This document shows positions 30,416 to 59,623 of a stretch of 64,000 nt of DNA, one piece after another. The position numbers were made by a program, and so were the translations under genes. A model generated the notes under the pieces. It was given only the letters and a program-made list of their open reading frames with translations. It was not told the origin of the DNA and ran no database searches. Positions within the stretch are counted from its first letter, which is position 1, and each line of letters starts with the position of its first letter. The stretch is taken from the NCBI GenBank assembly GCA_963790475.1, contig CAWBOS010000013.1, positions 128,001-192,000 on the forward strand. The letters run 5' to 3'. Source of the stretch: an uncultured delta proteobacterium (GTDB taxonomy: Bacteria; Desulfobacterota; RBG-13-43-22).

Positions 30416-30490
30416 GCCGGCGTAGCTCAGGGGTAGAGCAGCTGATTCGTAATCAGCAGGCCGCGGGTTCAAATCCCATCGCCGGCTCCA
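30416..30490 (+). tRNA. tRNA-Thr(CGT)
   Basis: Cloverleaf: GCCGGCG/CGCCGGC acceptor stem, anticodon arm GCTGA-TTCGTAA-TCAGC, GTTCAAATC T-loop, encoded CCA. Confidence 0.95.
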
Positions 30491-30947: not shown

Positions 30948-31058
30948 AGATATAGACCCATTCAGATATTTATAGGCACTGGAGATAATTTGTTCTCAAA
31001 TAATGAAAAAGCGCACTACTTTGATGATAATGGTCTGAAAAAACAAAGAGATAGAGAA

Positions 31059-32210
31059 ATGATCTTTATCAGTTATAGTCATGAAGATGAAGAACATTTA
31101 GAAAGATTACGCATCCACATGAAGCCATTAGAAAAAAGGGGATTGGTGGTTATATGGGATGACTCAAAAATAATAACTGGACAAAAATGGCAAGAAAAAA
31201 TTGAAACTGCGTTATCAAAAGCAAATATTGCAATCTTAATAATATCTGCAGACTTTTTTGCATCAGACTTTATTGCTGAAAAGGAGCTTCCCCCTATTCT
31301 AAAGAAGGCTGAATCAGAAGGAACAATGATAGTGCCTATAATTCTCAAACCATGTCGGTTTTTAAGGGAAGAGCACCTTTCAAAATTTCAAGCCCTAAAC
31401 CATCCTGACGAACCATTGCTATCAATGTCTGACATAGAACAAGAGAAAACATGGGATCGATTATCACAGCTCATTGAGACCGAGTTGAGGCGTCCCGACG
31501 AAGAGGCCATTTTAAATTATACAGAGAAGATCGGTACTAATAATAATGATGAATTGTTATACTTTAGGCGTGGCGTCTGTTATAAAAGGTTAGGAAAATT
31601 TCATGAAGCCATTTCTGATTTTTTAAGAGCAAAGGATATTGAACCGAAAGATCGATTCGTTTATTTTGAACTCGGTGACTGTTATAAAAAATTACATAAG
31701 TATTTAGATTCAATAAAAAATTATTTGAAATGTTTGGAATTTGAGCCTGATCCAAAACCTATTTTAAATAAATTAGGTTTAATTTTAAAGGATCTCGGCG
31801 GAGAACATTTTGATTTTTCTGGTTTAACCGCCTTGGATAAAAAATTGAGGTTACGTTGGGTAAGAAACGCTAATTTGTCACCTAAGAGATTAACTTGGGA
31901 TGAAGCTAACCATTTTTTACAAAATTTGAACATAGAAGGTTATGCCGGATACAATGATTGGAGATTACCTGATATAGGTGAGCTTGTGACATTAATTAGT
32001 TTTGTCAAAAATATTGGGTACGAGAAAAAGTTTGGAAGATTATTTAATAAGATGGGATTTAATAATGTCCAATCTACAATTTTTTGGTCAAACGAAGTCG
32101 TTATGAAAAAACCTAATTGGGTTTACGCTATTAACATGAATTATGGAGGGAAAAGTCGACATAAGAAAATAGCCAAACATTGCATTTGGCCTGTGAGATC
32201 TGAATGTTAA
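31059..32210 (+). CDS. TIR_2 - TPR - DUF1566 (Lcl-like) fusion protein
   Basis: IFISYSH.D...W.D..I..G..W...I, SADFFAS.FI..KEL (TIR); YFRRG.CY..LGKF.EA/YFELG TPRs; LTW.EA..F...LN..GYAGYNDWRLP...EL...FWS...WPVR. Confidence 0.8.
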   Translation: MIFISYSHEDEEHLERLRIHMKPLEKRGLVVIWDDSKIITGQKWQEKIETALSKANIAILIISADFFASDFIAEKELPPILKKAESEGTMIVPIILKPCRFLREEHLSKFQALNHPDEPLLSMSDIEQEKTWDRLSQLIETELRRPDEEAILNYTEKIGTNNNDELLYFRRGVCYKRLGKFHEAISDFLRAKDIEPKDRFVYFELGDCYKKLHKYLDSIKNYLKCLEFEPDPKPILNKLGLILKDLGGEHFDFSGLTALDKKLRLRWVRNANLSPKRLTWDEANHFLQNLNIEGYAGYNDWRLPDIGELVTLISFVKNIGYEKKFGRLFNKMGFNNVQSTIFWSNEVVMKKPNWVYAINMNYGGKSRHKKIAKHCIWPVRSEC

Positions 32211-32440: not shown

Positions 32441-32530
32441 AAGTTTTCTTGTTGGCAACCCTCTCATTAAGGAGTTCCAATGGCAGAATGATAACCCCCA
32501 TTCCTCAAAAGAGAAGTGGGGGTTTTTTTT
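32441..32530 (+). repeat. Conserved leader/terminator element, copy 2
   Basis: AAGGAG, ATG GCA GAA TGA TAA, CCCCCATT...AGTGGGGG plus T8; near-identical to 30856-30947. Confidence 0.75.
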
Positions 32531-32574: not shown

Positions 32575-34827
32575 ATGCCTCGATTGACTGAACAGGAACA
32601 ACAAGAGATTATCCGCTATATTGAGGCCGACAAACCCCTGCCGGACAAGTACCGATTCTTATTGTTTGAAGACAAACGCGAAGTGGAGTTGGTCTGGAAT
32701 GGGAAGACTAATGAGGTCTGCAACATCGTGTTGCCGTTTCAGGTGATCGAGCAGGTGGACGAGCCGCGGGCCGAAAAGCCGGCCGATACGGCGCTACAAA
32801 TGGGCCTCTTCGACTCCCGGGGGCGTCAGCTAAAGGGGTGGACAAACAAGCTCATCTGGGGGGACAACAAGCTTATTCTCTCCTCCCTGAAGAACGGCCC
32901 CTTGCGTGAGGAGATTGAGAAACAGGGCGGCATCAAGGTGATGTCTATTGATCCCCCCTTTGACGTAGGTGCGGATTTCTCCATGGATATTGAGATCGGT
33001 GACGACACCTTCACCAAAAAGCCCAACATTCTTGAAGAGATCGCCTACCGTGACACCTGGGGCAAGGGTGTGGATTCCTTCATCGCTATGATTTATGAGC
33101 GGCTAACACTGATGCGAGATCTCCTGGCTGAAGATGGCAGTATTTATGTCCATTGTGATTGGCATATTGGGCACAGTATTAAACTTGTGTTAGATGAGGT
33201 TTTTGGTGCGATTAATTTCAGAAATCATATTTCCTGGAAAAGGAGCACTCCGAGGGGTAATGCGAAAAATAAATATCCTGAATTAACGGATTTCATTCTT
33301 TTTTATTCAAAGTCTGAGGACACCATTTGGAATGACCAGTATACTGATTATAGGCCAGAATACATTGAAAAATACTATTCATATGTTGATGAGAAGACAG
33401 GAAAGAAGTTTCAACCTACAAGTTTGCTTGGGCATTCCGGCGTTAACCCAATTTATGAGTGGCGAGGCATCAAAAGACCTTGGAGATACCCAATAAACCG
33501 GCTCGAAGAGTTAGATATTCAAGGAAAGATTTATTGGCCTGAAGGAGAAGGTATCCCCAGGTTAAAACGTTTTTTTGATGAACAAAAAGGGGTACCAGTT
33601 CAGTCATTATGGGATGATATTCCACCTGTTAATTCTCAAGCGCTCGAAGATACAAAATACGCGACTCAAAAGCCCGAAGCCCTACTCGAACGCATCATTA
33701 AAGGCTCTTCAAATGAAGGCGATCTCGTTGCTGACCCTTTCGGTGGTTCTGGAACCTTGGCAGCGGTGGCGGAGAAATTAGGCCGCAAGTGGATTGTAGC
33801 CGACCTTGGCAAGTTCGCCATCCACACGACGCGCAAGCGGTTGATCGGCGTCCAGCGGCAACTGAAAGCCGAGGGTAAAGACTACCGCGCTTTTGAAATC
33901 CTAAACCTGGGCAAGTACGAGCGCCAACATTACATCGGTATCAATCCGAACCTACGTCAGGCAGAACAACAAAAACAACTGGAAGAAAAGGAAGCCGCGT
34001 TTCTCGACCTGATTCTACGTGCCTACCGGGCCGAGAAGACCGAGGGTTTTGCCGCGTTCCACGGCAAAAAAGCTGGACGGTTGGTGGCGGTGGGACCGGT
34101 CAATCTGCCGGTAACACGCCTGTTCGTTGAAGAAATCATTTTGGAATGCCGCAAAAAACATATTACAAAAGTGGACCTTCTCGGTTTTGAGTTTGAAATG
34201 GGGCTGTTCCCCAATGTATTGGATGAAGCCAGGGCCAAGGGCATCGACATTTCGCCTAAGTATATCCCCGCTGATGTCTTCGACAAACGGGCTGTGGAAA
34301 AGAATCAGGTGGTCTTCCATGACGTGGCCGCCATTGAAGTCAAGCCGCATGTCAAAAAAAATAATGTGGCGGTGGAGCTGACAGACTTTTCGGTTTTTTA
34401 TTCCCAGGATTCCATCGCCGGCGCCGAGGCCACGCTTAAGGACAAGGCCAGCAAGATCGTGGTGGAGAAGGGCCAGATCATTAAATTGATTAAGGACGCG
34501 AAGGGCCTCGTGAAACGGGAGTATTTGACTAAGAAGTGGACTGATTGGATTGATTACTGGGCGGTGGATTTCAACTTCGAAAACAAGCGAGAGATTATCC
34601 GCGTACAGAACGAGGAAAACGGTGAGTGGGAGGAGCGTTGGACTGGAGACTACATCTTTGAAAACGAGTGGCAGTCCTTCCGTACCAAGAAAGACCGCTC
34701 GCTGGAAATGACCAGCGTCTTTCACGAATGCCCGCCCGGACGGCGCAAGCTGGCGGTGAAGGTGGTGGATATTTTCGGCAACGACACCATGACCATTGTC
34801 GAAATCTCTGTGGGAGGGAAGAAATAA
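32575..34827 (+). CDS. mod: Type III restriction-modification methyltransferase
   Basis: NKLIWGDN, IDPPF, YATQKPE.LLERII, DPFGGSGT (beta-class N6/N4 MTase); TAATG coupling to res. Confidence 0.88.
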   Translation: MPRLTEQEQQEIIRYIEADKPLPDKYRFLLFEDKREVELVWNGKTNEVCNIVLPFQVIEQVDEPRAEKPADTALQMGLFDSRGRQLKGWTNKLIWGDNKLILSSLKNGPLREEIEKQGGIKVMSIDPPFDVGADFSMDIEIGDDTFTKKPNILEEIAYRDTWGKGVDSFIAMIYERLTLMRDLLAEDGSIYVHCDWHIGHSIKLVLDEVFGAINFRNHISWKRSTPRGNAKNKYPELTDFILFYSKSEDTIWNDQYTDYRPEYIEKYYSYVDEKTGKKFQPTSLLGHSGVNPIYEWRGIKRPWRYPINRLEELDIQGKIYWPEGEGIPRLKRFFDEQKGVPVQSLWDDIPPVNSQALEDTKYATQKPEALLERIIKGSSNEGDLVADPFGGSGTLAAVAEKLGRKWIVADLGKFAIHTTRKRLIGVQRQLKAEGKDYRAFEILNLGKYERQHYIGINPNLRQAEQQKQLEEKEAAFLDLILRAYRAEKTEGFAAFHGKKAGRLVAVGPVNLPVTRLFVEEIILECRKKHITKVDLLGFEFEMGLFPNVLDEARAKGIDISPKYIPADVFDKRAVEKNQVVFHDVAAIEVKPHVKKNNVAVELTDFSVFYSQDSIAGAEATLKDKASKIVVEKGQIIKLIKDAKGLVKREYLTKKWTDWIDYWAVDFNFENKREIIRVQNEENGEWEERWTGDYIFENEWQSFRTKKDRSLEMTSVFHECPPGRRKLAVKVVDIFGNDTMTIVEISVGGKK

Positions 34828-37508
34828 TGGCCTTGCATAAAGACTTTCCTGAATCCCCCTACGATATTCTTGACCCGGTCTTGCGTTGGTTTCCGGCCGA
34901 CGAATCGTTGCGCGAGACCACGATGGAAAAACTGATACCCCCGTTGGTGTCGCAACTACGCAATAAGGTGAAGGAATGGCGGGACAGCAGTTATGCCGGG
35001 GCCACGGATACCAGCAAGAGTTTGCTTAAATGGTGGTTTATTACCCCACACCTGCTGCCCAAGGCTGACGGCACCATGACCGAGTTTCAGTATTACTTTG
35101 CCCAGCGCGAGGCGCTGGAGACGATTATCTATCTTTATGATGTGGTTGGCGTCCAAGACAAGTTTGATCTCATGCGCTTTGACAGTTCCGGCGCGGTTTC
35201 GGCCGGAATGTTCGATGAAACCTGGCGACGTTTTGTGGTAAAAATGGCGACCGGCTCCGGCAAGACCAAGGTGTTGAGTCTTGTTCTGGCTTGGAGTTTC
35301 TATCATAAGCTTTATGAACCGGGGTCGGAGTTGGCTCGGAATTTTCTGGTAATCACTCCTAATATTATCGTCCTGGATCGCATCTATAAGGATTTTAAGG
35401 GCCTTGATATCTTTTTTAAAGACCCGGTTATTCCCGACAATGGCGTGGGCGGACGGAACTGGCGCGATGATTTTCAACTGACCCTGCACGTGCAGGACGA
35501 GGTGCGGATTACCCGTCCCACCGGTAATATCTTTTTAACCAACATTCACCGTGTTTATGCCGGGAATGATATTCCCCCTTCTCCTGATGACGAAGACCTC
35601 CGGGATTATTTCCTGGGGAAGCGTCCCAGCGGCGCAACTACCGATTCCAAAGTTGACTTGGGAATGATCGTGCGCGACGTTGATGAGCTGGTGGTCTTGA
35701 ACGACGAGGCCCATCACATCCATGACCCTCGCATGGCTTGGTTCAAATCCATCGAGGACATCCATAATCGATTGAAACAAAAAGGCGCGGCTCTCTCCCT
35801 GCAAGTGGACACTACCGCCACCCCAAAACACAATAACGGGGCAATCTTCGTCCAGACGGTGGCCGATTATCCATTGGTTGAAGCAATCTCGCAAAACGTG
35901 GTTAAACACCCGGTCCTGCCCGATGCCCCCAGCCGTGCCAAATTAGTGGAACGTCAGAGCGCCAAATTCACCGAGAAATACACAGATTACATCCACCTCG
36001 GGGTGATCGAGTGGCGCAAGACGTATACCGAGCATGAAAAACTGGGCAAGAAGGCCATCCTGTTCGTTATGACGGACGATACCCGCAATTGCGACGACGT
36101 GGCTGAATACCTTGAAAATAATTATCCCGATCTGAAAAACGCAGTCTTGGTCATTCATACTAAGACCAATGGTGAGATTTCCGAATCAACCTCGGGCAAG
36201 AGCAAGGAAGAGTTGGACAAACTTCGTGAGCAGGCGAACATTATTGATGAACTGGACAGTCCTTACAAGGCTATCATATCCGTGATGGTGCTCAAAGAGG
36301 GTTGGGACGTGCGCAACGTTACCACCATTGTGGGTTTGCGGGCCTATTCCGCCCAAAGCAATATTTTGCCCGAACAAACCCTTGGTCGCGGATTAAGAAA
36401 AATGTACCCCGGCAGCGTGGAAGAATACGTCAGCGTAGTCGGAACCAATGCCTTTATGGAATTTGTTGAATCGATCCAGGCCGAAGGGGTGGTCCTGGAC
36501 CACAAGCCTATGGGCGAGGGGACAGGCCCCAAAACCCCCCTGGTTGTGGAGGTTGATAGAGACAATATCAAAAAGGACATCGAGGCGCTGGATATCGAAA
36601 TTCCGGTGCTGTCCCCGCGGATCTATCGGGAATATAAGAACCTTAGCAGCCTGGACGTAAGCGCGATTGGGCACCAACGTGTCTTATACCTTCAATTCAG
36701 CGAAGAGGAGCAACGGGAGATCGTCTTTAAGGACATCACCACCGGGGAGGTATCCCACACAACAATTTTGGATACAGGAGGTGTTGCCGATTACCGCAGC
36801 GTTATCGGCTTCTTCGCCCAATCCATTATGAAAGAATTGCGGCTGGTAGGCGGTTATGACGTTCTATATGGAAAGGTCAAGGCGTTTATCCGGGATGATC
36901 TGTTCGACAGGGAAGTGGACCTCGAAAGCCCAAACACCTTGCGAAACCTGTCAGAGCCGGCAGCAACGATGACTCTGATTGGGACCTTTAAAAAAGCGAT
37001 CAATGCTCTCACAGTCCAAGACAAAGGGGACGCTGAAATCCGCGATACTATCAAACTAAGGCAGACGAGGCCCTTTGTGGCGAAGGAGCAAAGCTACCTT
37101 ATCCCGAAAAAAAGCGTTTTTAATCGTATTATCGGCGATAGCCATTTTGAATTGCTATTCGCCCGGTTCTTGGAAGACTGCGAAGATGTGATTTCCTACG
37201 CCAAGAATTATTTGGCTGTTCATTTCAAGCTGGACTACGTTAATGCGGCCGGTGATATTTCCACCTACTATCCGGATTTTTTAGTAAAGCTATCCGATAA
37301 TCGCATGGTCATTGTTGAAACCAAGGGGCAGGAAGAATTAGACGTACCCCAAAAAATGGACCGTTTGCGGCAATGGTGTGAGGATATCAACCGCGTCCAG
37401 TCCGATGTAAGATATGGCTTTGTTTATGTGGACCAGGAAAGCTTTGAGAGATTCAAGCCGGTCTCATTCAGGCAATTGGTTGAAGGCTTCAGGGAATACA
37501 AAAAATAA
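34827..37508 (+). CDS. res: Type III restriction endonuclease/helicase
   Basis: KMATGSGKT, NDEAHH, TATP, LKEGWDV, EQTLGRGLR, C-terminal YYPDF...VETKG nuclease. Confidence 0.88.
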   Translation: MALHKDFPESPYDILDPVLRWFPADESLRETTMEKLIPPLVSQLRNKVKEWRDSSYAGATDTSKSLLKWWFITPHLLPKADGTMTEFQYYFAQREALETIIYLYDVVGVQDKFDLMRFDSSGAVSAGMFDETWRRFVVKMATGSGKTKVLSLVLAWSFYHKLYEPGSELARNFLVITPNIIVLDRIYKDFKGLDIFFKDPVIPDNGVGGRNWRDDFQLTLHVQDEVRITRPTGNIFLTNIHRVYAGNDIPPSPDDEDLRDYFLGKRPSGATTDSKVDLGMIVRDVDELVVLNDEAHHIHDPRMAWFKSIEDIHNRLKQKGAALSLQVDTTATPKHNNGAIFVQTVADYPLVEAISQNVVKHPVLPDAPSRAKLVERQSAKFTEKYTDYIHLGVIEWRKTYTEHEKLGKKAILFVMTDDTRNCDDVAEYLENNYPDLKNAVLVIHTKTNGEISESTSGKSKEELDKLREQANIIDELDSPYKAIISVMVLKEGWDVRNVTTIVGLRAYSAQSNILPEQTLGRGLRKMYPGSVEEYVSVVGTNAFMEFVESIQAEGVVLDHKPMGEGTGPKTPLVVEVDRDNIKKDIEALDIEIPVLSPRIYREYKNLSSLDVSAIGHQRVLYLQFSEEEQREIVFKDITTGEVSHTTILDTGGVADYRSVIGFFAQSIMKELRLVGGYDVLYGKVKAFIRDDLFDREVDLESPNTLRNLSEPAATMTLIGTFKKAINALTVQDKGDAEIRDTIKLRQTRPFVAKEQSYLIPKKSVFNRIIGDSHFELLFARFLEDCEDVISYAKNYLAVHFKLDYVNAAGDISTYYPDFLVKLSDNRMVIVETKGQEELDVPQKMDRLRQWCEDINRVQSDVRYGFVYVDQESFERFKPVSFRQLVEGFREYKK

Positions 37509-37580: not shown

Positions 37581-37850
37581 TTGAAAAGCAAAATCACTGA
37601 GATTCCGATTTCATACCTTACCCGCTCAAAAAACAGACTGGGTAAAGGGGCCGTCCCCTGCGTGGCTACCGGTCGTTGGTTGGAATTCCCACCTGTATCC
37701 TCTGGCCACTTCAAGGAGGGCGAGTTTATCTTATTGAAAGTAATGACAAAAGATAAAAACAATAGAGACAAAATAATTTGTAAACTTGTTATCACCAGGG
37801 AAAACCTGCTGGACGCAATAAATTTTACAGGAAGTCCCTTAAAATATTGA
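37581..37850 (+). CDS. Small hypothetical protein
   Basis: 89-aa ORF, TTG start after a G-rich RBS. Confidence 0.4.
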   Translation: MKSKITEIPISYLTRSKNRLGKGAVPCVATGRWLEFPPVSSGHFKEGEFILLKVMTKDKNNRDKIICKLVITRENLLDAINFTGSPLKY

Positions 37851-37998
37851 TAACTATATCAGGGGGATATGGGATAGCACCAAATGGAGGTTTGAGAACT
37901 TCTTCCTGCTATACGTACCAAAGTGATGATTGACAGATAAGGAGATTTTGATCATCATCTGTCTGATTTTCTTATTGATTTAAGAAAAGGAGACAGAG

Positions 37999-39138
37999 AT
38001 GACGAGCCTATATAGTGATATACAGAAGGCAGATATAACTTCAGATCATTTTAAGAGTCCCACCCCAACCCCACCCCGTTACTATCAGACGCGGTTACGA
38101 TTCACCTCCCATCTTGAAGGAAGTTTAGAAGCGCTCGGAAAGATTTTGAAACGGTTGGCCGGAATGGACCTCCCGGGGAGAGATCAGGTAGCCGCCTATC
38201 TTCGCCACTTAACTCACGGCAATCGCCGACCGAGAACCCTGTACAGTCGGTTTGGCACCCTCGTTCTTTTTCTGGGACTGATACGGGACACCGGCAAAGG
38301 CTTTGAAGCCATTACCCGAAGTGATGTAGAGGCCTTTATCGAGCGAGAGCAGGACCGGGGGATTAAGATAACGACGATCAGGACCAGGCTGGTGAGTGTG
38401 CAGGCCTTTCTCCGCTATCTGGTGGAGGAAGGGATCGTTTCTGGGGATATATTCCGCAGTCGGAGGATACGGTTGCAGTTACCGGAGCGGCTGCCGCGGG
38501 CCATGGATCCTGACGATCTGCAGAAGCTGCTTTCCGTTATTCATGATATCCGTGACCGAGCTTTGATCCTGGTCTTGTTGCGGACTGGCCTGCGGATCGG
38601 CGAGTTGCTTCAGACCAAGATGACCGACGTCCATCTCCAGGAGCGGAAGATAGAGATTTACGAAGGGGAGAAGAACCGCCTGGGGAGGGTGGTCTATCTC
38701 AGCGACGATGCAGTTATAGCCCTGCGGAAGTGGTTGAAGAAGAGGAATCCCGGAGAGGAGTACCTGTTCTATGGGAAGAACGTCGAGACTTTGTGTTACA
38801 GCACCGCCCGGATCATCTTTCTGCGATATATATCCAAAGCGGGATTAGAGGGCAAGGGATATTCCCTGCATACCCTGCGTCACACCTTTGCCACGGAGTT
38901 GCTCAACGCCGGCATGCGTCTGGAGTGCCTCCAGGTATTGCTGGGACACCGGAGCATCGAGGAGACGCGACGTTATGCCCGGTTGACCGATAAGACCCGG
39001 GAGGAGGAGTATTTTAAGGCCATGTCGAAGATCGAGAGGAGGAAGAGTCATGATCGATGCGATCCTGAACTGGCGGCGATTTTTGAAGCGAAGGAACTGT
39101 TCGCCCCATTGCCTGAAGAACTATCTGAACCTCATTAA
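37999..39138 (+). CDS. Tyrosine recombinase A
   Basis: TGLRIGE, GEK, HTLRH, LLGH, TRRY: full catalytic set. Confidence 0.92.
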   Translation: MTSLYSDIQKADITSDHFKSPTPTPPRYYQTRLRFTSHLEGSLEALGKILKRLAGMDLPGRDQVAAYLRHLTHGNRRPRTLYSRFGTLVLFLGLIRDTGKGFEAITRSDVEAFIEREQDRGIKITTIRTRLVSVQAFLRYLVEEGIVSGDIFRSRRIRLQLPERLPRAMDPDDLQKLLSVIHDIRDRALILVLLRTGLRIGELLQTKMTDVHLQERKIEIYEGEKNRLGRVVYLSDDAVIALRKWLKKRNPGEEYLFYGKNVETLCYSTARIIFLRYISKAGLEGKGYSLHTLRHTFATELLNAGMRLECLQVLLGHRSIEETRRYARLTDKTREEEYFKAMSKIERRKSHDRCDPELAAIFEAKELFAPLPEELSEPH

Positions 39139-39937
39139 ACACTTTGTCATCTGGTTGGATGTGCCGGTGGAGGAGGTTACCTCTGCGGTCGTCTCCCGCT
39201 ACATTGAGCATCTGATGAGGAAGAGACTGGCGCCCAAGACAGTCAACTGTCACTTAAACGGCATCCGCCAGTTCTACCATTATCTGCGGGAGGAAGAAGG
39301 TCTGACCATCACCAATCCCATCAGGAAGCATCACTTCCAGAAGATGTCCAGGCCCCTTCCCCGGCACCTGAGAGATGAACAGGTGGAGACCTTCTTCCAG
39401 GCCATCAAGGGGGCCCGCGACCGGGCCATGTTCATGCTTATGCTTAGATGCGGGTTACGGGTGGAAGAAGTCGCCCATCTCACCATAGGCGTCATCGACG
39501 TCAAGCGCAGGACCATCCTGGTGGAAGACGGCAAGGGTGGAAAAGACCGGGTCGTCTATATGAGTCATGATGCCCTTCAGGCCCTGACCGCCTATCTGAG
39601 GGTGAGGCCTCTATCCAGAGCCAGTAGGATCTTTCTGGCGGAAAAGGCTCCCTGTAAGGGACAGCCCATTTCCATTCGTGGCATTCAGAGGCGCATGGAA
39701 TATTATGGCCGCCAAGCGAAGCTCAAGGTGTCCTGTCATCATCTTCGACACACCATGGCCACCCAGCTGCTCAACGCTGATGCCGATCTCTGCACCATCC
39801 AGGATCTCTTGGGTCATAGCAATGTGAAAACCACGCAACGGTACTGCCGGATATCAAACCTGAAAGTGCAGAGAGACTACTTCAAGGCCATGGAGGTGAT
39901 CAGGCTACAAACGGCTGGCAACCCAAATAATCCTTGA
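39050..39937 (+). CDS. Tyrosine recombinase B (XerC/D-like)
   Basis: CGLRVEE, GKGGKDR, HHLRH, LLGH, TQRY; overlaps recombinase A by 89 nt. Confidence 0.92.
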   Translation: MIDAILNWRRFLKRRNCSPHCLKNYLNLIKHFVIWLDVPVEEVTSAVVSRYIEHLMRKRLAPKTVNCHLNGIRQFYHYLREEEGLTITNPIRKHHFQKMSRPLPRHLRDEQVETFFQAIKGARDRAMFMLMLRCGLRVEEVAHLTIGVIDVKRRTILVEDGKGGKDRVVYMSHDALQALTAYLRVRPLSRASRIFLAEKAPCKGQPISIRGIQRRMEYYGRQAKLKVSCHHLRHTMATQLLNADADLCTIQDLLGHSNVKTTQRYCRISNLKVQRDYFKAMEVIRLQTAGNPNNP

Positions 39938-40183
39938 CAAAAGAACTAAACTATGAAATTTTAAACAGTACCTAACCCATTAACTTCAATAAGAAAATCA
40001 GACTTTAGTACGTATAGCTTCCTGTAGTCCGCAGATCTCTATTTTTGAAAAACCGCAAGAGTACGAACGGAAATCGTTAATAAAAATACCTTGTTATTTC
40101 AGGAAATTCAACAGATAATAAAGTATTCCCAACAAGTTTACCTATTTTTTGCTTTCAATCCCTCTCGATAGAATTGGAGAATA

Positions 40184-41605
40184 ATGAGCATACGGGATAC
40201 CATGAAGAAGCTATTGGGTGGTAAGCCCGTTGATATCGGTGAGCTTAATAGGCGAACAACACGGGAATCTTTGCAGAAGGTTCCTATCCCCGTACCCAAA
40301 AACCCTCTTGAAGGGATTCACATCACTGATGAATTTAGAACAGTCGAGTCTTTGCTTGATGCTGGCTACCCAGTAGTCTTCGTCTCTGGCAATGCTGGCA
40401 CGGGAAAGTCAACATTGATCCATTATCTACGAACTGTCCTAAAGAAGAAGTTGGTAGTTGTAGCCCCAACTGGTGTGGCTGCCCTGAACGTCGGCGGCGT
40501 TACAATTCATTCATTTTTCCATCTCCCCCCGAAGATCCACGAAGACGAAGATATCAAACTCGTATATGACAGGAGGCTTTACCAGAAACTAGACTTGCTT
40601 ATTATCGATGAAGTCTCAATGGTCCGATGTGATCTCATGGACAGCATTGACAATTTCCTCAAAAAGAATAGGGCGAACAATGACCCCTTCGGTGGCGTTC
40701 AATTGCTACTGATTGGCGACCTCTTTCAATTGCCGCCTGTCGTTCCTAGGCAGGAAATGGTTATATTAAAAGAGAAGGGATACTTCAGCCCTTACTTCTT
40801 TAGTTCGTTTAGCCTGCAGAAAAGTTCCCTGGTTCCCATTGAGCTTACATTTGTCTATAGACAAGAGGACTCCTTTTTCGTATCTCTGCTGAATAGTTTG
40901 CGGATAGGGGAGAACGTAGATTTAGCAACTGCCGAGGTCAATTCCCGGTGTTATTGGAACGGAGATGTATCTACAGACATCACTCTGACTTGCACGAACA
41001 TAAGGGCTGACCAAATCAACATGGATGAATTGCACCAGATACTTGAAAGAGAGTATGCCTTCAAAGGCGAAATCAAAGGACGGTTCTCTCTTGAAGAAGA
41101 CAAACTGCCTTCCCCGCTTGACCTAAGGTTGAAAGTCGGTGCACGAGTTATGTTCACCAAGAACGACGATCACCGAAGGTGGGTCAATGGAACTCTCGGT
41201 ATCATACGACATATAGACCAAAAATCAATCGGCGTTGAACTTGTTACTGATCAGAAAGGGTCAAACTTTGATGTTCAAAGGGTTACATGGGAGACATACA
41301 AGTATGCCTACAGCCCCGAGAAGGACCAGATACTTGCGAAAAAAGTAGGCGAGTACACACAGTATCCCTTAATGCTGGCATGGGCCGTCACTATACACAA
41401 GAGTCAAGGCAAGACCCTGAAAAACGTCCTGGTTGATCTGGGCAATGGTGCATTTACTTCTGGCCAGGTCTACGTGGCGCTTAGTCGTTGTCGATCTATA
41501 AAAGACATCCGTCTCGCACGTCCACTTCGGAATACAGACGTGAAATGTGATCCTTTGATTAAAAGATTCTACCTAACTTTGGATGAAATGAAAAAGAGAA
41601 TGTGA
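40184..41605 (+). CDS. Pif1-family (SF1B) DNA helicase
   Basis: GNAGTGKS, APTGVAA, TIHSFF, IDEVSM, GDLFQLPPV, YRQ, LKVGARVM, YPLMLAWAVTIHKSQG, GQVYVALSR. Confidence 0.9.
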   Translation: MSIRDTMKKLLGGKPVDIGELNRRTTRESLQKVPIPVPKNPLEGIHITDEFRTVESLLDAGYPVVFVSGNAGTGKSTLIHYLRTVLKKKLVVVAPTGVAALNVGGVTIHSFFHLPPKIHEDEDIKLVYDRRLYQKLDLLIIDEVSMVRCDLMDSIDNFLKKNRANNDPFGGVQLLLIGDLFQLPPVVPRQEMVILKEKGYFSPYFFSSFSLQKSSLVPIELTFVYRQEDSFFVSLLNSLRIGENVDLATAEVNSRCYWNGDVSTDITLTCTNIRADQINMDELHQILEREYAFKGEIKGRFSLEEDKLPSPLDLRLKVGARVMFTKNDDHRRWVNGTLGIIRHIDQKSIGVELVTDQKGSNFDVQRVTWETYKYAYSPEKDQILAKKVGEYTQYPLMLAWAVTIHKSQGKTLKNVLVDLGNGAFTSGQVYVALSRCRSIKDIRLARPLRNTDVKCDPLIKRFYLTLDEMKKRM

Positions 41606-41609
41606 TTTA

Positions 41610-42390
41610 ATGGAAAATTATTCAGACCACCTAATGCCCGAAGAGAAAGAACTTTTTGAAAAAAAGAAGGAATTAACAGTTCTTGAAGAAGAGTTGTTCC
41701 AGCAGGAGTTGGATTTGGCAACGACAAAGGCCGATCTTCTGGTATATGAAGGGAAGTATATTCGTATTGTTGGTAGCCTTTATGCAGAACTTGATGAGAT
41801 AGAGGCCCAAATATCTGAAGCAGAAGCAAACCTTGACCTTAATAACAAAGAGACTTTATTTAAAGCCAAAGAGGCCCGTCGAAAGGCACAAGAATCCCAC
41901 GAGGCTACCACATCTGCCATAATAGAAAAGGCACAAAAAAAATTCCGGCCATCAGATGAAATTAAAAAACTTTATCGTCAGGCGGCTAAAGCTATGCATC
42001 CGGATTTGTCAACAGACGAAAAGTCACACACTATACGAAAACAAATGATGGCTGAAGTAAACCTCGCTTACGAAGAAGGAAGCGAAGAAAAGCTGTGTGA
42101 AATTTTAAGACGGTGGGAAACTAGTCCGGATTCTGTTGAGGGGGAAGGGGTTGGAGCGGAGCTAATTAGAATAATCAGAAAAATTACTCAAATAAAGGAT
42201 CGATTAAAGGCTATTAAAGTTGAAATTTCGGATTTAGAGAAATCAGAATCTTTGGAAGTTAAAGGAAGAAATCAAAAAAGCAGAAAAAGAGGGAAGAGAT
42301 CTTCTTAAGGAAATGGCCGATAGACTATATGATCAAATACTGTCGGCAAGAGCCAGATTAAAAAATGTGAATATAAAAACCAGTGGTTAA
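41610..42390 (+). CDS. Coiled-coil protein with J-domain-like HPD motif (probable frameshift ~42250)
   Basis: KKLYRQAAKAMHPDL...MAEVNLAY; the shifted frame continues LWKLKEEIKKAEKEGRDLLKEMA... to TAA at 42388-42390, overlapping the next ATG. Confidence 0.75.
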
Positions 42391-44045
42391 TGGTTAATGG
42401 AATGACTGATAATACTGAAAAGCAAACAAGTTTAATCTCCTTAAGCAAGTTAGAAATAGCAAAATATTCTCAAGGCTTAATTAAAAGGGGGATAGAGTTA
42501 ACTAAGGAGATAAATTTACAAGTCATAAAGAGCGCAAATGACTATTTTGACGTAGGGATAGGATGCTATGAAAAGAAAGATTTTGAGGGGGCTATTGCAA
42601 ATTTTACGAAATCGATTGCAATAGATGTTGATTTTTCTCAAGCCTACCTATATCGGGGGAAAGCTTTTTGTTATAGAACAAATAAAGAATGGAAAGCTGA
42701 ATACACAAATTTAATAGTCAAAGGAAGTTATGTTAAAGACGACAATGACCCTTTTGTTTTTAGTTCACGGCTAACTCACTTGGATACTTTCAATAATGTC
42801 TGTTTTTATTTACTCCAAGGGATTTGTTTTATGCAAGATATTTCCGGGGATGATAATGCACCTAATCGGCCTAATGGAGAAAAATTTGAAATATCCTCTG
42901 ATGATTTATTTTCTTATTTTGCAAAGCCAATAGTTCCTATGCGTGTTAAATCTGTCAATATTTTTTTGGCTTCTCCTGCAAAGATTGAAGGGAATTCTTT
43001 TGGTGAGATAAAAACGCCTGATACTCTTATCAAAATCAGATTGGGGCAGATAGATCGAAGACCATTCCGGTCTAAATATAGTTATAAGCCAAAAATGAAG
43101 GGATTATTTTGTTGTAGGATATTTGGGCCTATTAAGGACTATGAGTGTATTTGTGGCAAATACAATCTGATGAAGCACCGCGGAGTTGTCTGCGAAAAGT
43201 GTAGGGTTGAGGTCATTCAGTCCAAGGCCAGGCGACAGCGCATGGGACATATTAAGCTGACAATTCCAGTGGTCCACACTTGGTTTCTTAAATATCTCCC
43301 TTATCAAATTGACATACTTTTGGATATGCCAAGAGAGGAATTAGAAAAAATAATCTATTATAACTCATGGATTGTTCTTGACCCTCGTCAAACATCACTT
43401 AAGAGAAGAGAAGTGCTGGATAAAGAGGGATATAAACAGGTTATAAAGAATTATGGTTTTAATTCATGTGAAATGAGTTCGGGGGCTGAGGCAGTTAAAA
43501 GATTACTTGAAGAGTTAGATCTTAAAAAAACAACCGACCAAATACTATCAGACATTAATAAAACAAATTCAGAAATAAAAAAGACTTTTCTAAAGACAAG
43601 ATTGGAGACTATTAATTATTTCATTAGAACAGGAGTTAAACCGGAATGGATAATTCTTAACGTTTTGCCTATAATACCACCAGGTTATAGGCCGCTCTTC
43701 CCAGATAGTTTTGAAATAAGTCTCAATCATCATTACAAAGTTGTCATTAACCAGAATAATTATTTGAAGCGATTACTTGATCAAAATCTCCCTGAGGCAA
43801 TTATTACGATGGCGAAAAAAACCCTTCAGAGGTCTGTCGATGCTCTTTTTGAGAACGAGCAATTTGGAAAAGATCCAAGGGATTATGAACAAGCTATTTC
43901 TGATTTTGATACTTTTATGAGATTAGAACCCAACAGAGAAGAGCCGTATTTTTATCGAGGAGTATTTTTTTTAGAAAGAGGGAGGATTGATGAGGCGTTT
44001 AAAGATTTAAATCATATATCATCTTTTAGAAAGAAAGAAGATTGA
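42390..44045 (+). CDS. TPR protein with an inserted RNA polymerase beta-prime (RpoC) N-terminal clamp domain
   Basis: TPRs at both ends (YFDVG..CYEKKDFEGAIANFTKSI..D..F..AYLYRG; DYEQAISDF..F.RLEP....YFYRG); aa ~184-489 follow RpoC: LASP, GEIKTPDT, GLFC.RIFGPIKDYECICGKY, GVVCEKC.VEV...RR.RMGHI.L..PV.H.WF, GAEAVK.LL, PEW.IL..LP.IPP..RP, VIN.NN.LKRLL, LQ..VDALF.N. Confidence 0.9.
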   Translation: MVNGMTDNTEKQTSLISLSKLEIAKYSQGLIKRGIELTKEINLQVIKSANDYFDVGIGCYEKKDFEGAIANFTKSIAIDVDFSQAYLYRGKAFCYRTNKEWKAEYTNLIVKGSYVKDDNDPFVFSSRLTHLDTFNNVCFYLLQGICFMQDISGDDNAPNRPNGEKFEISSDDLFSYFAKPIVPMRVKSVNIFLASPAKIEGNSFGEIKTPDTLIKIRLGQIDRRPFRSKYSYKPKMKGLFCCRIFGPIKDYECICGKYNLMKHRGVVCEKCRVEVIQSKARRQRMGHIKLTIPVVHTWFLKYLPYQIDILLDMPREELEKIIYYNSWIVLDPRQTSLKRREVLDKEGYKQVIKNYGFNSCEMSSGAEAVKRLLEELDLKKTTDQILSDINKTNSEIKKTFLKTRLETINYFIRTGVKPEWIILNVLPIIPPGYRPLFPDSFEISLNHHYKVVINQNNYLKRLLDQNLPEAIITMAKKTLQRSVDALFENEQFGKDPRDYEQAISDFDTFMRLEPNREEPYFYRGVFFLERGRIDEAFKDLNHISSFRKKED

Positions 44046-44204
44046 TGAAGCGTTTGCGGATTTAAACATTTAACATCGCTAAAATAGAATTGGTTCAACA
44101 AGAAAAGTTTGGATTTGTTCAAAAAGTAAGCGACTATTTATTAAGTTTTTGGAAAAGAAACGGATTCAGTCAAGATATTGACCCGAGATTAAAAGGCAAG
44201 CAAA

Positions 44205-45053
44205 ATGGAGTTTGTAGATTGTCGTAAATGCGGGTTTAAAAATCCTCTTCCTATCTATGAGATGATATGCGGTAATTGCGGATATCGTCTTTACCTTGGT
44301 CGAAATGCTCAATATGTAGAAAGGGAACTTACGCAAGGTACGCCCACGTGGCATGATTGGCGAAGAGAAGGAATAGGTGCGTCGGAAGCGCCTACTGCTA
44401 TGGGCGTGTCTAAGTTTATGTCTATTGAGAAGTTGGTAAAGATTAAGACCGGAAAGACGCCCGAACCGCCTTCAAATAAATATATGAGTCGAGGGAAAGA
44501 ACTGGAGAAACCTGCAAGGGAATTGTATATCAAAAAGACAGGCATAACCGTTCATCCGTCATGTCTTGAATCGCTTGACCGGGGATGGATGAGAGCAAGC
44601 CTGGACGGATGGTCAAAAGAAAACCATCTCGTAGTCGAAATCAAGTGTCCGCAGGGAGAGAAAGACCACTCGCAAGCACTTAGGGGAAAAGTTCCAGAGC
44701 ATTACTATCCACAACTTCAACACATTCTTGCGGTAACTGGCTTTTCAGAGATTGACTATTGGAGCTTTCGGAAAGGTAAGGGAGTCCTCCTGAAAGTTAA
44801 GAGGGATGAGAATTATATCCAAAAACTTATTTCGACTGAAGTGAAGATATGGCATAGAATTACATCGGATAAAAATTTTAATAGTGGCAGCAAAGTTGTT
44901 TTAACCTGCCCAAATCCAAGTTGTTCAAAAGGGCTGAAGGTCTCAACTGGTGGAGATTTACCAAGGAGGGTATTTGTCTGTATGCACTGCGGGATTGAAT
45001 TTGAATTATATGAGAGTCCTTGGGGTATCAAGCCTCGTATCAAATCTAATTAG
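44205..45053 (+). CDS. YqaJ/lambda-exonuclease-family nuclease with N- and C-terminal zinc ribbons
   Basis: QGT..W..WRR.GIGASE, RG.ELE..AR, ASLDG, EIKCP, YYPQLQH; CRKC/CGNC and CPNPSC/CMHC. Confidence 0.85.
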   Translation: MEFVDCRKCGFKNPLPIYEMICGNCGYRLYLGRNAQYVERELTQGTPTWHDWRREGIGASEAPTAMGVSKFMSIEKLVKIKTGKTPEPPSNKYMSRGKELEKPARELYIKKTGITVHPSCLESLDRGWMRASLDGWSKENHLVVEIKCPQGEKDHSQALRGKVPEHYYPQLQHILAVTGFSEIDYWSFRKGKGVLLKVKRDENYIQKLISTEVKIWHRITSDKNFNSGSKVVLTCPNPSCSKGLKVSTGGDLPRRVFVCMHCGIEFELYESPWGIKPRIKSN

Positions 45054-45115
45054 TGTCCATCCGGAAGTGGACTTTCCCATATCATATAGATAGGGTTGGG
45101 GTATTGAGCGTGGAT

Positions 45116-45895
45116 ATGAAAATCCTGGATAATCTGAGCTACGTTCCGATTGGTAGATGCATATACTGCGGAGATACTGAAGACCTGCAGAAAGAACATA
45201 TCCTCCCATTCGGTTTAGGGGGCACTACCGTTTTGCCAGATTCAACATGTAGAGAGTGCGCGAAAATTACAGGGCAGGTGGAGCAGAAGGTCCTCCGCGG
45301 TCCAATGTGGGGTCTACGGATTTACCGAGGACTAAAGTCCAGAACAAAACATGAAGAGGCTCCTAAATGTTACCCCCTTAAAATCATAAAGAACGGAGCG
45401 GAACAGTTAGTTGAACTGTCTATCAATGAATTCCCCATAATGTTGCATTTTCCGATTTTTGAACCGCCTGCATATCTGAATCCAAATGCCTATAAAAAAG
45501 GCATCTTGGTGAGCGGTGTTGTTACCGTTTCTTTCGGGCCACGCCCCGAAGAAGTTGCTCGGACATTAGGTGCCAAATCTATCTCTATTAGCCAAGACCA
45601 GGAACCAGTTGCATTTGCCCGCATGATAGCCAAAATAGCGTATTCTTGGGCGGCAGCAGAGGGCAAACTTGATCTTTTGCGAGGCGCTTCTCCAGTTGTC
45701 TCAGCTATTTTGGGCAAGACAGACGATATCGGTCGCTGGGTTGGTACGGTTACTGATCACATACAGAAGCATAACGGTTTGCTGCACCGTATACTGATTC
45801 ATGAAGATGACGACAGGCACCTTCTAATCGGGGAGGTCCACCTGTTCAGTGACTCTGAAACGCCCAAATATGGAGTAATCCTTGGTGAAATCTAA
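45116..45895 (+). CDS. HNH-endonuclease-like protein
   Basis: CIYCG...EHILPFGLGG...CRECA; start at 45116 or 45053. Confidence 0.7.
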   Translation: MKILDNLSYVPIGRCIYCGDTEDLQKEHILPFGLGGTTVLPDSTCRECAKITGQVEQKVLRGPMWGLRIYRGLKSRTKHEEAPKCYPLKIIKNGAEQLVELSINEFPIMLHFPIFEPPAYLNPNAYKKGILVSGVVTVSFGPRPEEVARTLGAKSISISQDQEPVAFARMIAKIAYSWAAAEGKLDLLRGASPVVSAILGKTDDIGRWVGTVTDHIQKHNGLLHRILIHEDDDRHLLIGEVHLFSDSETPKYGVILGEI

Positions 45896-46418: not shown

Positions 46419-46495
46419 AAAACAAAACCCCCACCTCTCTTTGAGAAATGGGGGTTATCATTCTTCCATGGATGCTCACATTCTGAAGGCTGCCG
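46419..46495 (-). repeat. Conserved leader/terminator element, copy 3 (diverged)
   Basis: GGCAGCCTTC...ATG GAA GAA TGA TAA CCCCCATTTCTCAAAGAGAGGTGGGGG TTTTGTTTT. Confidence 0.7.
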
Positions 46496-46575: not shown

Positions 46576-47186
46576 TTAATTTCTCAACCTTTCCTGTTTT
46601 TTCCATTTATAGTATTTCTCGTTTGCCAACCGCAACATATCAAAGTCTCCAGGACTATCCCCATAGGCATATATGTTTTTAAAATTTTCCAGATTGAAAT
46701 ATTCTTTTATCCTCTTTATTTTTTCCGCACCGTAACAGTTTTTTCCTGCTATTCTTCCTGTAATTCTCGATTCAATCACCTCCAACTCTGTGGCAATCAA
46801 ACCAAAACCATATTTTTTACACCAATGCTTTAAATAATCTTCGATTGAAGCTGAGACAATCACAATTTCATGTCCGGCGGCTTTATGAAACTGTAATCGT
46901 TCTATGGCTACCTTTCTTATTAAATTGGGCAATTTTTTATTAGAGAAGTGGATAGCCTGTTCCTCGAATAATTTTTTTTCCCATCCACCAAAATAATATC
47001 TGAGAACAGCCTCTTTAGCCTTCCAGTTTGGCAATACTTTGAGTTTATAGGCGATAACAATTGGGCTTAATAATAAAGAACCCATTAAAACCTAGGGTAG
47101 CCAACGGCAAACAGTATAAAATCAATGAAGCTGTCACGATAAGTGATTGTGCCGTCAAAGTCAAAAAGAACAAGCGTGTTTTTCAT
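46576..47186 (-). CDS. HAD-IB family hydrolase (frameshift in T run ~47090)
   Basis: MKNTLVLFDFDGTIT, IVSAS, NCYGAEK, AYGDSPGD..ML. Confidence 0.8.
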
Positions 47187-47982: not shown

Positions 47983-48780
47983 CTATAATGTCCAAATACA
48001 CTTAACAAAACGGTATGGGTCCTCCTGGATTTTATCAGTGATTCCGCTTGAGGGGAAACCGTTGAGAGATGCCTCTACATAGCGGCGGAGCTTCTTCTTG
48101 GCCCGTTTGGTATCGAACTCCGGGTCACCCTCAATTTTCTTAATCAGCTTATAATAGCTTTCCACAGGCGCATAAGTTTCGAGAACGTCCAGAATAAATT
48201 TTTCCTGAATAGCCTGTTTCATGGTGTAACTGTGAAGAGGGCGGTGTTTGATTTTACCGCCCAGTTCATAACCCTCGCCGAAAATTTCAAGGGTCTTATT
48301 CTTTGGCGTGGCCGTAAAGGCAAAATAACTCGCATTAGACAGGAGCTTCCGGGCCTCCATGATGCGGTTGATTTTATCCTCTGTGGTTTAACCATCTTCT
48401 TCTGCCCCGGTTGTGGATAGTGCTGCGCTTACCGCCGCTGAGGTTTTGCCGCCCTGACTCGAATGGGCCTCATCGATGATGATAGCAAAGTTGTTCCCCC
48501 GTTGCTCGTTCCCGATTTCGTCGAGGATATAAGGGAACTTTTGGACCGTGGAGATAATGATTTTCTTGCCGCTTTTAATAAACCTGCGCAAATCTCCCGA
48601 ATGCTCGGCATGTCCAACCGTCGCCCCCACCTGGGCGAACTGCTTGATGGTATCACCGATCTGTTTGTCGAGGATCCGCCGGTCCGTAACGACGATGATC
48701 GAATCAAAGACGACCTTATCGTTTATAGTAAGGCCGATGAGCTGATGGGCGAGCCAGGCGATGGAACAACTCCGGGCTGT
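47983..48780 (-). pseudogene. hsdR: Internal fragment of type I restriction subunit HsdR
   Basis: SIAWLAHQL, VVTDRRILD, STVQKF, IIDEAHSSQ, FAFTATPK, YTMKQAIQE; truncated at both ends. Confidence 0.8.
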
Positions 48781-48907
48781 GGCTTTTATCACCGGGCAAA
48801 CTCTTCGAGCAGTTGATAGCTCTTTCCAGATAACCTGTCTGGTGTCATCTTCTGCTACGGGACCGTGTTGAAATAAATCAGACATATTACAAAAGTCTCT
48901 GTCATTT

Positions 48908-49510
48908 TTACCGATCGTAGCCGGAACAAGGGATGCAGACATGTTTTTCGCCCAGAACCCGGAGATAGGCCTTGGCCGTCAGCTCCCCGCAAACGGCGCA
49001 GGGGGTGAACCCCATTATTTCGGGAAACCAATCACCTTCGTATTGTTTGACTTCACCGATGGTAAGGACATCAGACTCCGGGGCATCCCAGACGAGATTT
49101 ACCAGCTCTTCCTGCTCTTCAAGGGGAATGTCGTCGGGCATGATGCCCATCCCCCGTTTACGCATAAAGGCCGATTCGCCAATCTGTTTTTGCAACGTGG
49201 GTTTATAGCTGACCCGTACAGAGCGGTTGGTAGCCTTGTCAATGAGGGTGAAAGCAAGCTTGCCAAGGGGTTTTTTGTTGATGTTGCCCTTGCCGAAAGT
49301 GCAACCGGTGGCATACTGGACACCGTCGCCAAAGCACATCCCGCCATGGTCCTCCCCGATCTCTACGATACCGAAAAGCTGTGTGCCGCCGGAGCGCTTC
49401 ACGCCCAACGTCCGCAAAGCCGCCAGCCCGACACGCACACCCGCTACGCTGGCCCAGCACTTATGTCCGTGAAATTTCAATGCGTCCATCAAGATTACTT
49501 TGTCATCCAT
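48908..49510 (-). CDS. FmdE-family protein
   Basis: FHGHKC, CFGDGVQYATGCTFGKGN, CAVCGE...CIPC. Confidence 0.85.
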   Translation of the reverse strand: MDDKVILMDALKFHGHKCWASVAGVRVGLAALRTLGVKRSGGTQLFGIVEIGEDHGGMCFGDGVQYATGCTFGKGNINKKPLGKLAFTLIDKATNRSVRVSYKPTLQKQIGESAFMRKRGMGIMPDDIPLEEQEELVNLVWDAPESDVLTIGEVKQYEGDWFPEIMGFTPCAVCGELTAKAYLRVLGEKHVCIPCSGYDR

Positions 49511-59611: not shown

Positions 59612-59623
59612 GGGTACACCTCT

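Follow-up and report, generated by a model that had tools for sequence, protein, structure and literature searches.

A candidate RNA polymerase clamp mimic: the N-terminal part of beta-prime embedded in a tetratricopeptide repeat gene on a Desulfobacterota island

The 64,000-nucleotide window analyzed here (positions 128,001 to 192,000 of contig CAWBOS010000013.1, assembly GCA_963790475.1, from an uncultured delta proteobacterium of the Desulfobacterota lineage RBG-13-43-22) carries a chimeric gene, P0001, in which residues 2-314 of the RNA polymerase beta-prime subunit (RpoC) are embedded in a tetratricopeptide repeat (TPR) protein. The gene is genuine DNA and did not arise as a chimera of assembly. 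The copied segment keeps its zinc-binding (Zn) domain and the residues that build its fold, while the loops that serve only within the polymerase, and the sigma-contacting face, are heavily changed. Tentatively, and with rather less than even confidence, P0001 may be a selected, free-standing mimic of the polymerase clamp for factors that dock on beta-prime. A first-pass annotation, made from the letters of the window, had proposed an integrated decoy or sensor in a defence island, and that interpretation is partly supported by the evidence laid out below. As far as these searches reach, the combination of TPR motifs and clamp is unique. The gene and its parts are as follows.

42390..44045, + strand: P0001, the whole chimeric gene, 551 aa with no internal stop, in the order TPR, linker, beta-prime 2-314, TPR
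42540..42668, + strand: N-side TPR motifs, residues 51-93 (Pfam TPR_2 and TPR_11)
42711..42899, + strand: linker, residues 108-170, with no homologue
42900..43871, + strand: copy of beta-prime 2-314, residues 171-494, comprising the N-terminus, zipper, Zn domain, clamp core, lid and clamp helices
43029..43070, + strand: insertion of 14 residues in the zipper (about residues 214-227), following beta-prime residue 43 and visible as a gap in the BLASTP and phmmer alignments
43146..43202, + strand: Zn-binding motif C253 C255 ... C268 C271, four cysteines in invariant columns
43692..43727, + strand: lid, four residues shorter (PLFP---DSFEIS-LN)
43722..43859, + strand: clamp helices (beta-prime 265-310), with Q455 (R275Q), A475 (E295A) and S482 (A302S)
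43875..44018, + strand: C-side TPR-like repeats, residues 496-543 (Pfam TPR_9, NCBIfam NlpI)
44024..44066, + strand: out-of-frame relic of the last TPR half-repeat (84%), lying across the stop codon (direct repeat D5, 55-nt spacing)

The relationship of the embedded block to beta-prime is evident from profile, pairwise and structural comparisons. Pfam family PF04997 (RNA_pol_Rpb1_1) matches residues 206-494 over profile positions 10-283 of 312 (E-value 8.9e-41; 140.7 bits against a cut-off of 39.7), which places the block within this domain family. BLASTP pairs residues 171-494 with the 2-314 stretch of the beta-prime encoded by the host, at 157 identities in 328 positions (48%; E-value 4e-91), RpoC proteins overall are colinear with the block at 48-53% identity, and Foldseek matches the predicted fold to beta-prime chains (E-value about 5e-24). 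The first-pass annotation had recognized this colinearity over 42939-43856; the block proves to be slightly longer (42900-43871) and to begin at beta-prime residue 2, and the four Zn ligands that had been picked out by eye are C253, C255, C268 and C271. The homology had also been said to stop before the NADFDGD active site. It ends at beta-prime 314 (...LQRSVDALFENEQFGK), about 145 residues short of the catalytic loop, after which TPR sequence follows, and neither the NADFDGD loop nor PF00623 is found in P0001. The RpoC model TIGR02386 gives 303.4 bits against a cut-off of 963.5 and covers profile positions 2-296 of 1147, a score that leaves the protein outside that family. Because the active site is missing, the clamp copy cannot polymerize, and the product of P0001 is, judged from its sequence, non-catalytic, an RNA polymerase-derived piece of the kind that had been suggested.

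The single intact frame between TPR motifs also holds on closer inspection, with TPR_2 and TPR_11 on the N side and a weak TPR_9 on the C side. More specifically, TPR_2 matches residues 51-79 at 28.3 bits, marginally above its cut-off of 27 and sufficient to class the protein among those with TPRs, and TPR_11 matches residues 59-93. These motifs are preceded by a long predicted helix at residues 9-49 in a low-confidence model, and, among the best 150 of 10288 library matches, residues 36-100 or thereabouts find only generic TPR proteins. On the C side, TPR_9 matches residues 496-542 at an E-value of 0.007 and 16.8 bits, below its cut-off of 35, and NlpI matches the same repeats at an E-value of 1.1e-6, likewise under its cut-off. 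A database copy of the protein, P0002, starts at the fifth codon and has 547 aa.

That a TPR gene was joined to a fragment of rpoC in the course of assembly or binning is exceedingly improbable, even though the host genome is a 20-contig assembly with an estimated contamination of 9.7%. The best rpoC match to the block is no more than 53% identical, both among the best matches in 5.8 billion protein clusters and in 401 genomes of the phylum, and therefore an assembler would have had no source to mis-join. Composition is uniform over both junctions and the frame runs on without interruption; the GC content of the block (0.354) has converged on that of its AT-rich flanks (0.33 and 0.32), as against 0.496 in the host rpoC segment. 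The gene is flanked by genes for a J-domain protein and a YqaJ protein, and rpoB is not a neighbour, in agreement with the AT-rich, rpoB-free setting first described. Logan contigs of run X1 (possibly the sample of origin) agree with the gene at every position, including one at 42836-43024 that spans the junction between linker and beta-prime. Another run of the same study, X3, has a contig at 43370-43617 with two differences, and runs from two other studies have contigs at 43321-43584 (X2; 264 nt, three differences) and at 43281-43538 (X5; 258 nt, four differences), both of which fall in the most diverged part of the beta-prime block. Support from reads at both junctions had been proposed as a check against a chimera; it is present at the first, and none of the listed contigs spans 43799-44040, the junction of beta-prime with the C-side TPRs. 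No RNA run was among those listed as containing P0001 sequence.

The block has not changed evenly. P0001 retains 73 of the 109 columns that are invariant in 128 true RpoC sequences and has changed the remaining 36. The Zn domain (beta-prime 58-100) is its best-kept part, with 79% identity and 21 of 25 invariant columns, and the core that follows keeps 10 of 12; the zipper keeps 6 of 14, the lid 5 of 13 and the clamp helices 17 of 32. Taken together, zipper, lid and clamp helices have 31 of 59 invariant columns changed versus 8 of 52 elsewhere (Fisher p 5e-5), a count of 111 columns because those deleted in P0001 were scored as changed, and one in which the groups of elements were defined after the changes had been seen and the borders of zipper, lid, Zn domain and clamp helices follow the E. 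coli literature. Two gaps interrupt the alignment with host beta-prime, the 14-residue insertion, which is absent from the first-pass annotation, and the four-residue lid deletion, and both are in frame. The shortened lid and the residues Q, A and S in place of R275, E295 and A302 had been noticed by eye, and alignments to host and E. coli-type beta-prime chains, from which these positions were read, give the same result. Two basic residues of the Zn domain are also lost (K76N and R77L).

The core of the coiled coil formed by the clamp helices is retained beneath an altered surface. As read from the alignment, the hydrophobic positions that knit the coiled coil are mostly retained and the charged, exposed ones replaced. 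In the second of two AlphaFold models the clamp core and coiled coil (residues 290-490 or thereabouts) reach a predicted local distance difference test (pLDDT) score of 75-98 and the clamp helices 87-94, within models whose mean pLDDT is poor overall (55.4 and 58.6). Sigma region 2 and the N-terminal domain of NusG are binders of the beta-prime clamp helices, and the retained coiled-coil core, its tip LKRLL...P..II, its confident prediction and the 79% identity of the Zn domain would suit a protein that titrates a host factor from these surfaces, such as an alternative sigma, a NusG-like or RfaH-like protein or Rho, and that reprograms transcription for the island in an anti-sigma-like manner. 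Such a role is nevertheless rather improbable, in that none of R275, E295 and A302 is preserved and the glutamine now at position 275 is the one reported to hinder assembly of the holoenzyme, that 15 of the 32 RpoC-invariant columns of the clamp helices are altered, and that the binding itself is conjectural. A complex prediction that paired P0001 (residues 170-495) with the host RpoD (residues 90-440) scored 0.29, where the mark is 0.32, a result that speaks for neither side. The substitutions R275Q, E295K and A302D are reported to make holoenzyme formation deficient (PMC8321222), which confirms the published effect that had been cited when the gene was first noticed.

The reading frame is revealing of the constraint under which P0001 has evolved. 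At the composition of the gene, 44 stops would be expected in 551 codons and the probability of none is 8.5e-21; the other five frames contain 28-72 stops. The host rpoC segment was also allowed to drift neutrally, with mutations biased towards AT, until its identity had fallen to 50.5% as in the real block. None of 500 simulated runs remained free of stops (11.1 on average and never fewer than 1); identity at third positions was still 72%, and GC content fell only to 0.43. The real block is 64% identical to host rpoC at codon position 1, 70% at position 2 and 37% at third positions, and fourfold sites at conserved residues are identical in 16 of 60 cases (27%), against 23.5% expected at random. 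Silent sites are saturated while positions 1 and 2 have been kept, and therefore the block must have had a long stay in an AT-rich setting during which the protein was held. On this codon-level evidence P0001 is not decaying freely, and its open frame has been maintained by selection. Neutral decay without homologous fusions had been put forward as grounds for abandoning the idea of a decoy; the second half of that proposition stands, since no other fusion was found, and the first does not, with 0 of 500 runs free of stops.

These results bear most directly on the rival view that P0001 is a functionless chimeric orphan whose frame is open by luck or through some weak indirect constraint, such as translation through to the downstream genes. 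This view is fairly unlikely in light of the simulated stops, the improbability of an open frame at this composition, the 28-72 stops in the other frames, the saturation of synonymous sites beside conserved first and second positions, the in-frame indels and the uneven spread of changes over the block. It draws support, however, from the standing of the gene as a singleton with no conserved neighbourhood, from the 36 of 109 RpoC-invariant columns that have changed and from an extreme terminal branch of 2.58 changes per site, where the 69 rows of true RpoC have a median of 0.045 (a difference of about 57-fold). The relic repeat at the 3' end, which reads LERKKIDEAFADLN in frame +1, is a further point for the orphan and a sign of some decay of the scaffold. 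Likewise, three of the four listed differences in environmental contigs change a residue (V342L, Y355C and N390K) and one is silent, a proportion that equals the neutral expectation, though with n = 4 and a contig depth of 2-3; all four lie in the variable middle of the beta-prime block.

Searches for relatives of the fusion brought up no second case. Among the best 120 of 1613 whole-protein matches in the 5.8-billion-cluster index, all are true rpoC pieces save the record of P0001 itself. Residues 1-175 match only P0001 and generic TPR proteins, both in that index and among the best 150 of 10288 matches in a representative library of 1.84 billion proteins, and the ESM Atlas yielded no fusion (best score 0.78, a generic TPR protein). 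Searches at the level of family, order and class returned the same 21 genomes; the phylum search of 401 genomes scored three candidates per genome, with 265 matches lying beyond those listed. Twenty genomes besides that of the host had more than one match, and the five of them that were re-examined all contained true rpoC, split or duplicated. In one genome of the host family (G005:C19, about 85-86 kb; L012 8803-10417, - strand) a second, frameshifted rpoC piece has the NADFDGD motif and is 42-53% identical to P0001; this piece, either a pseudogene or a contaminant, is not fused to TPRs. Another genome of the phylum (G043:C28:29101-30039) has two long rpoC-like frames of 1366 and 1138 aa on different contigs, either a duplicate or contamination. 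The literature search listings, which did not extend to supplementary files, held no report of a beta-prime paralogue or of a polymerase decoy or mimic. The early impression that the architecture matches no described system is borne out by the literature searches, which gave no such protein, and by the lack of a PADLOC model.

The block is bacterial and evidently derives from this phylum, and it may have come from the host's own lineage. The true host rpoC lies behind rpoB on another contig (C15). In a sample of 128 RpoC rows, the motif DLFSYFAKP (the first nine residues following the start) is common only to rows with the host-family motif, by which, and not by a separate count, those rows were recognized. 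A tree of the block with RpoC rows did not place it, and forcing it into the host family was 7.25 log-likelihood units worse and was not rejected (approximately unbiased test, p 0.124). That the homology begins at rpoC codon 2 argues that the captured DNA probably extended upstream into the spacer and rpoB, and the linker (residues 108-170) contains suggestive, though no more than suggestive, signs of being a remnant of the rpoB 3' end and the rpoB-rpoC spacer (IVKG ... LQGICF). The linker elements IVKG...FNNV...LQGICF resemble the RpoB tail ...IVKG...FNVLVKELQGLCL of two genomes from another family of the phylum, at the same spacing to the rpoC start. A local alignment of the linker with one of these tails (G315) scored 41, which 1 of 3000 shuffles reached (gap penalties -11/-1); shuffles did as well in 21 of 3000 cases for G143 and in 424 of 3000 for the host tail. 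When the shuffle test was repeated the counts were 3 of 2000 (G315), 9 of 2000 (G143), 102 of 2000 (G022) and 77 of 2000 (G074), with 105 of 2000 for a control stretch containing no RpoB tail (G163); G315 and G143, both from a single family, were chosen after their long alignments had appeared. A hidden Markov model of nine host-family RpoB tails gave no significant match to the linker (52 of 1000 shuffles scored as high), and Pfam gave nothing on residues 90-175 at E-values up to 10. An apparent rpoB-rpoC fusion, P0031, proved uninformative for this question, its tail being out of frame. If the linker does come from an RpoB tail, P0001 carries the contributions of both chains to the clamp.

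P0001 lies on an island of about 17.1 kb, of which the following features are relevant here.

30416..30490, + strand: tRNA-Thr (CGT), left end of the island
30990..32210, + strand: TIR-TPR-Lcl_C protein, directly after the tRNA-Thr, GC about 0.34
32575..37508, + strand: N6/N4 DNA methylase and ResIII helicase bearing a restriction endonuclease domain, a type III-like restriction-modification pair
37999..39937, + strand: pair of tyrosine recombinase genes that overlap, with inverted repeats on either side at 37961-37978 and 39986-40003
40184..42308, + strand: Pif1/Dda-like SF1B helicase and J-domain protein (HPD motif), 4 nt apart, directly 5' of P0001
44205..45895, + strand: YqaJ/lambda-exonuclease family gene and HNH_5 gene with a stop/start overlap, directly 3' of P0001
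47540..47584, + strand: right end of the island, where 45 nt of the tRNA-Thr 3' half recur without a difference (direct repeat D2)

The tRNA-Thr at one end, the 45-nt repeat of its 3' half at the other and the two tyrosine recombinases between them are the features of a tRNA-integrated island. The TIR-TPR protein and the type III-like restriction-modification pair on the same island agree with the defence-type setting in which P0001 had been placed at first. Of the neighbouring products, the restriction enzyme and the helicase alone have a match in PADLOC-DB 2.0, and no family there matches the proteins with J-domain, YqaJ and HNH domains. The proposal that the clamp acts as a trigger for the adjacent nucleases has fared less well, no link between them having been found; the HNH, YqaJ and J-domain genes form no conserved cassette elsewhere. 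Two relatives of the HNH protein were found in 185,579 species genomes, in unrelated neighbourhoods. Within the 21 class genomes the J-domain protein occurs in one, which is the host genome itself, and the YqaJ homologue in two, the second in a different setting. That second YqaJ gene (L026 10423-12224 = G008:C13) is followed by genes for a Sel1-repeat (TPR-like) protein and a trypsin-like peptidase; here too a YqaJ nuclease is paired with a repeat protein.

The five genes at 40184-45895 are on one strand. Spacers of 4, 81 and 159 nt separate them, apart from one pair that overlaps, and their strand has no terminator-like site between them; a promoter and terminator scan gave nothing beyond chance (19 promoter-like sites versus 13.9 expected). 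In the intact polymerase the exiting RNA and the upstream DNA pass along the Zn domain, zipper and lid. This arrangement of genes and the good preservation of the Zn domain would be in keeping with a protein in which the Zn domain and clamp core hold nucleic acid for the Pif1-like helicase, the YqaJ protein and the HNH protein, serving either to replicate or recombine the element or to cleave incoming DNA. Such a function is somewhat less probable again than the titration of a host factor. The zipper (6 of 14 invariant columns kept) and the lid (5 of 13) are the most altered elements, two basic residues of the Zn domain are gone through K76N and R77L, and HNH and YqaJ homologues elsewhere occur without such a partner.

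Several further observations were made along the island and beyond it. The TIR-TPR-Lcl_C protein is as AT-rich as P0001, and its TPRs are only generically like those of P0001. The methylase has 750 aa, and its open reading frame (ORF) overlaps that of the ResIII helicase by 160 nt; the helicase (34668-37508) is a TnsA-like/restriction endonuclease fusion matching the NCBIfam BPTD_3080 family at an E-value of 4.6e-74, below the cut-off. The recombinase pair is enclosed by nested inverted repeats (18 nt perfect at 37961-37978/39986-40003; 37882-37924/40002-40044; 37762-37790/40131-40159), which suggests that 37762-40159, midway along the island, is a module of its own that was inserted or can invert. 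Another repeat, about 87 nt long and perhaps a small terminator-bearing element, is present at 30860-30946 and 32444-32530 (direct copies, 84%) and inverted at 46420-46469; it ends in a G+C-rich hairpin and a T run, and its copies follow the tRNA, the TIR-TPR gene and the HNH gene. A HAD-hydrolase fragment lies at 46576-47085. Just past the right end of the island, two short ORFs at 47983-48942 (- strand) each contain part of a SWI2/SNF2 or ResIII ATPase and look like a broken helicase gene. An RND efflux operon at 56916-62828 (- strand) encodes an outer membrane factor, an HlyD-type adaptor and AcrB at 61-64% GC in a genome of 49% GC, its AcrB gene being split into two overlapping ORFs.

Weighed against these findings, the reading of P0001 as a selected clamp mimic meets a number of difficulties beyond the population differences, the relic repeat and the post hoc grouping of elements already described. 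The gene is a singleton whose 90% cluster has one member on one contig, and no second fusion was found in the 21 class genomes, the 401 phylum genomes, viral contigs, phages or plasmids; with no relative of the fusion found, long-term selection cannot be checked on orthologues. The protein contains no NTPase or effector domain recognizable by Pfam or NCBIfam, its TPR flanks and linker are modelled at pLDDT below 50, and it matches none of the families of PADLOC-DB 2.0. Nor was a conserved cassette detected around it with the HNH, J-domain and YqaJ homologues as anchors (the Pif1-like helicase was not used as one). Confidence in the mimic is held to a tentative level because of this lack of relatives and of a conserved gene partnership.

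The history that best accounts for P0001 would begin with the capture, inside a TPR-repeat gene, of a piece of the rpoBC operon comprising the first 314 rpoC codons and perhaps the last rpoB codons and the spacer. After capture the piece evolved about 57 times faster than true RpoC while the fold-building residues and the Zn domain were retained, and the loops that work only inside RNA polymerase, namely the zipper, the lid and the sigma-contacting face of the clamp helices, were rewritten. Phages and mobile elements often take over the host RNA polymerase by means of small proteins or RNAs that dock on beta-prime, and we know of no described bacterial protein that copies this docking surface. 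The likeliest role of the clamp copy on its TPR scaffold would be to bind, and so sequester or report, a protein that docks on the N-terminal or Zn-domain surface of beta-prime, the most plausible candidate being a factor with which a phage or a competing mobile element takes over transcription. With its sigma face rewritten, the mimic would not draw off the sigma factor of the host, and the changes at R275, E295 and A302 fit such a need; R275Q, E295K and A302D are reported to impair holoenzyme formation (PMC8321222).

The more specific proposal, that P0001 is an integrated decoy in immunity whose sigma-blind clamp, displayed on a TPR scaffold, catches takeover proteins of phages or mobile elements that dock on the beta-prime N-terminus or Zn domain and acts as a sponge that shields the polymerase or as a switch for the helicase and nucleases of the island, is coherent with the pattern of kept and lost surfaces but doubtful at present. 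It would, if true, represent the first prokaryotic immune protein whose bait is recognizably a piece of the attacked host machine, and because the origin of the domain is plain from its sequence, the idea is directly testable. Whatever its role, P0001 reveals which parts of the beta-prime N-terminus serve folding and which serve only the enzyme: about half of the residues of the block have been replaced outside the polymerase, and the Zn domain and the coiled-coil core survive, albeit in one gene of one lineage.

Comparison with known systems places P0001 between several of them. Like the RpoC N-terminal clamp (PF04997), it is colinear with beta-prime 2-314 and has the four Zn cysteines, the clamp core, the coiled-coil helices and the predicted fold; unlike RpoC, it stops before the active site, sits inside a TPR protein without an adjoining rpoB, terminates a 57-fold longer branch, has 36 of 109 invariant columns changed, a 14-residue insertion and a four-residue lid deletion, carries Q, A and S at the sigma-contact positions R275, E295 and A302, and scores far below the equivalog cut-off. 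The split beta-prime of cyanobacteria and plastids (RpoC1, gamma) is likewise a shorter chain that starts from the beta-prime N-terminus, and its models NF002729 and TIGR02387 match residues 185-494 of P0001 (score 262 versus a cut-off of 1117). The gamma subunit, however, has about 620 aa, contains the active site, lies beside its partner genes and is a working subunit, whereas P0001 keeps about 314 residues.

P0001 resembles the STAND/Avs-type TPR sensors in its repeats and in having genes for restriction-modification and a TIR protein nearby; it differs from them in that it has no P-loop NTPase by Pfam or NCBIfam, no effector domain and no PADLOC match. The integrated decoys of plant nucleotide-binding leucine-rich repeat (NLR) proteins, e.g. 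the WRKY domain of RRS1, provide the nearest parallel in concept, and the same idea has been raised for bacterial bNACHT11 (PMC11702601). As in the NLR decoys, a copied domain of a host protein stands in a repeat protein among immunity genes with its original activity lost, and one defining feature of an integrated decoy can be recognized in P0001: the embedded domain comes from bacterial rpoC, a host protein targeted by pathogens, and its activity is gone. Unlike those decoys, P0001 has no NTPase, signalling or effector domain and no conserved partner gene or known ligand. For bNACHT11, so far the one bacterial NLR-like protein for which the idea has been put forward, mimicry is hypothesized (PMC11702601), and no host-derived domain is recognizable there.

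The closest counterpart in extent is an experimental one. The copied block covers nearly the same residues as recombinant N-terminal fragments of beta-prime (1 to about 314-330), which suggests that such a piece can stand alone. Fragments of this kind have been used in vitro to bind sigma-70; they keep R275, E295 and A302 and bind sigma, whereas in P0001 all three residues have been changed.

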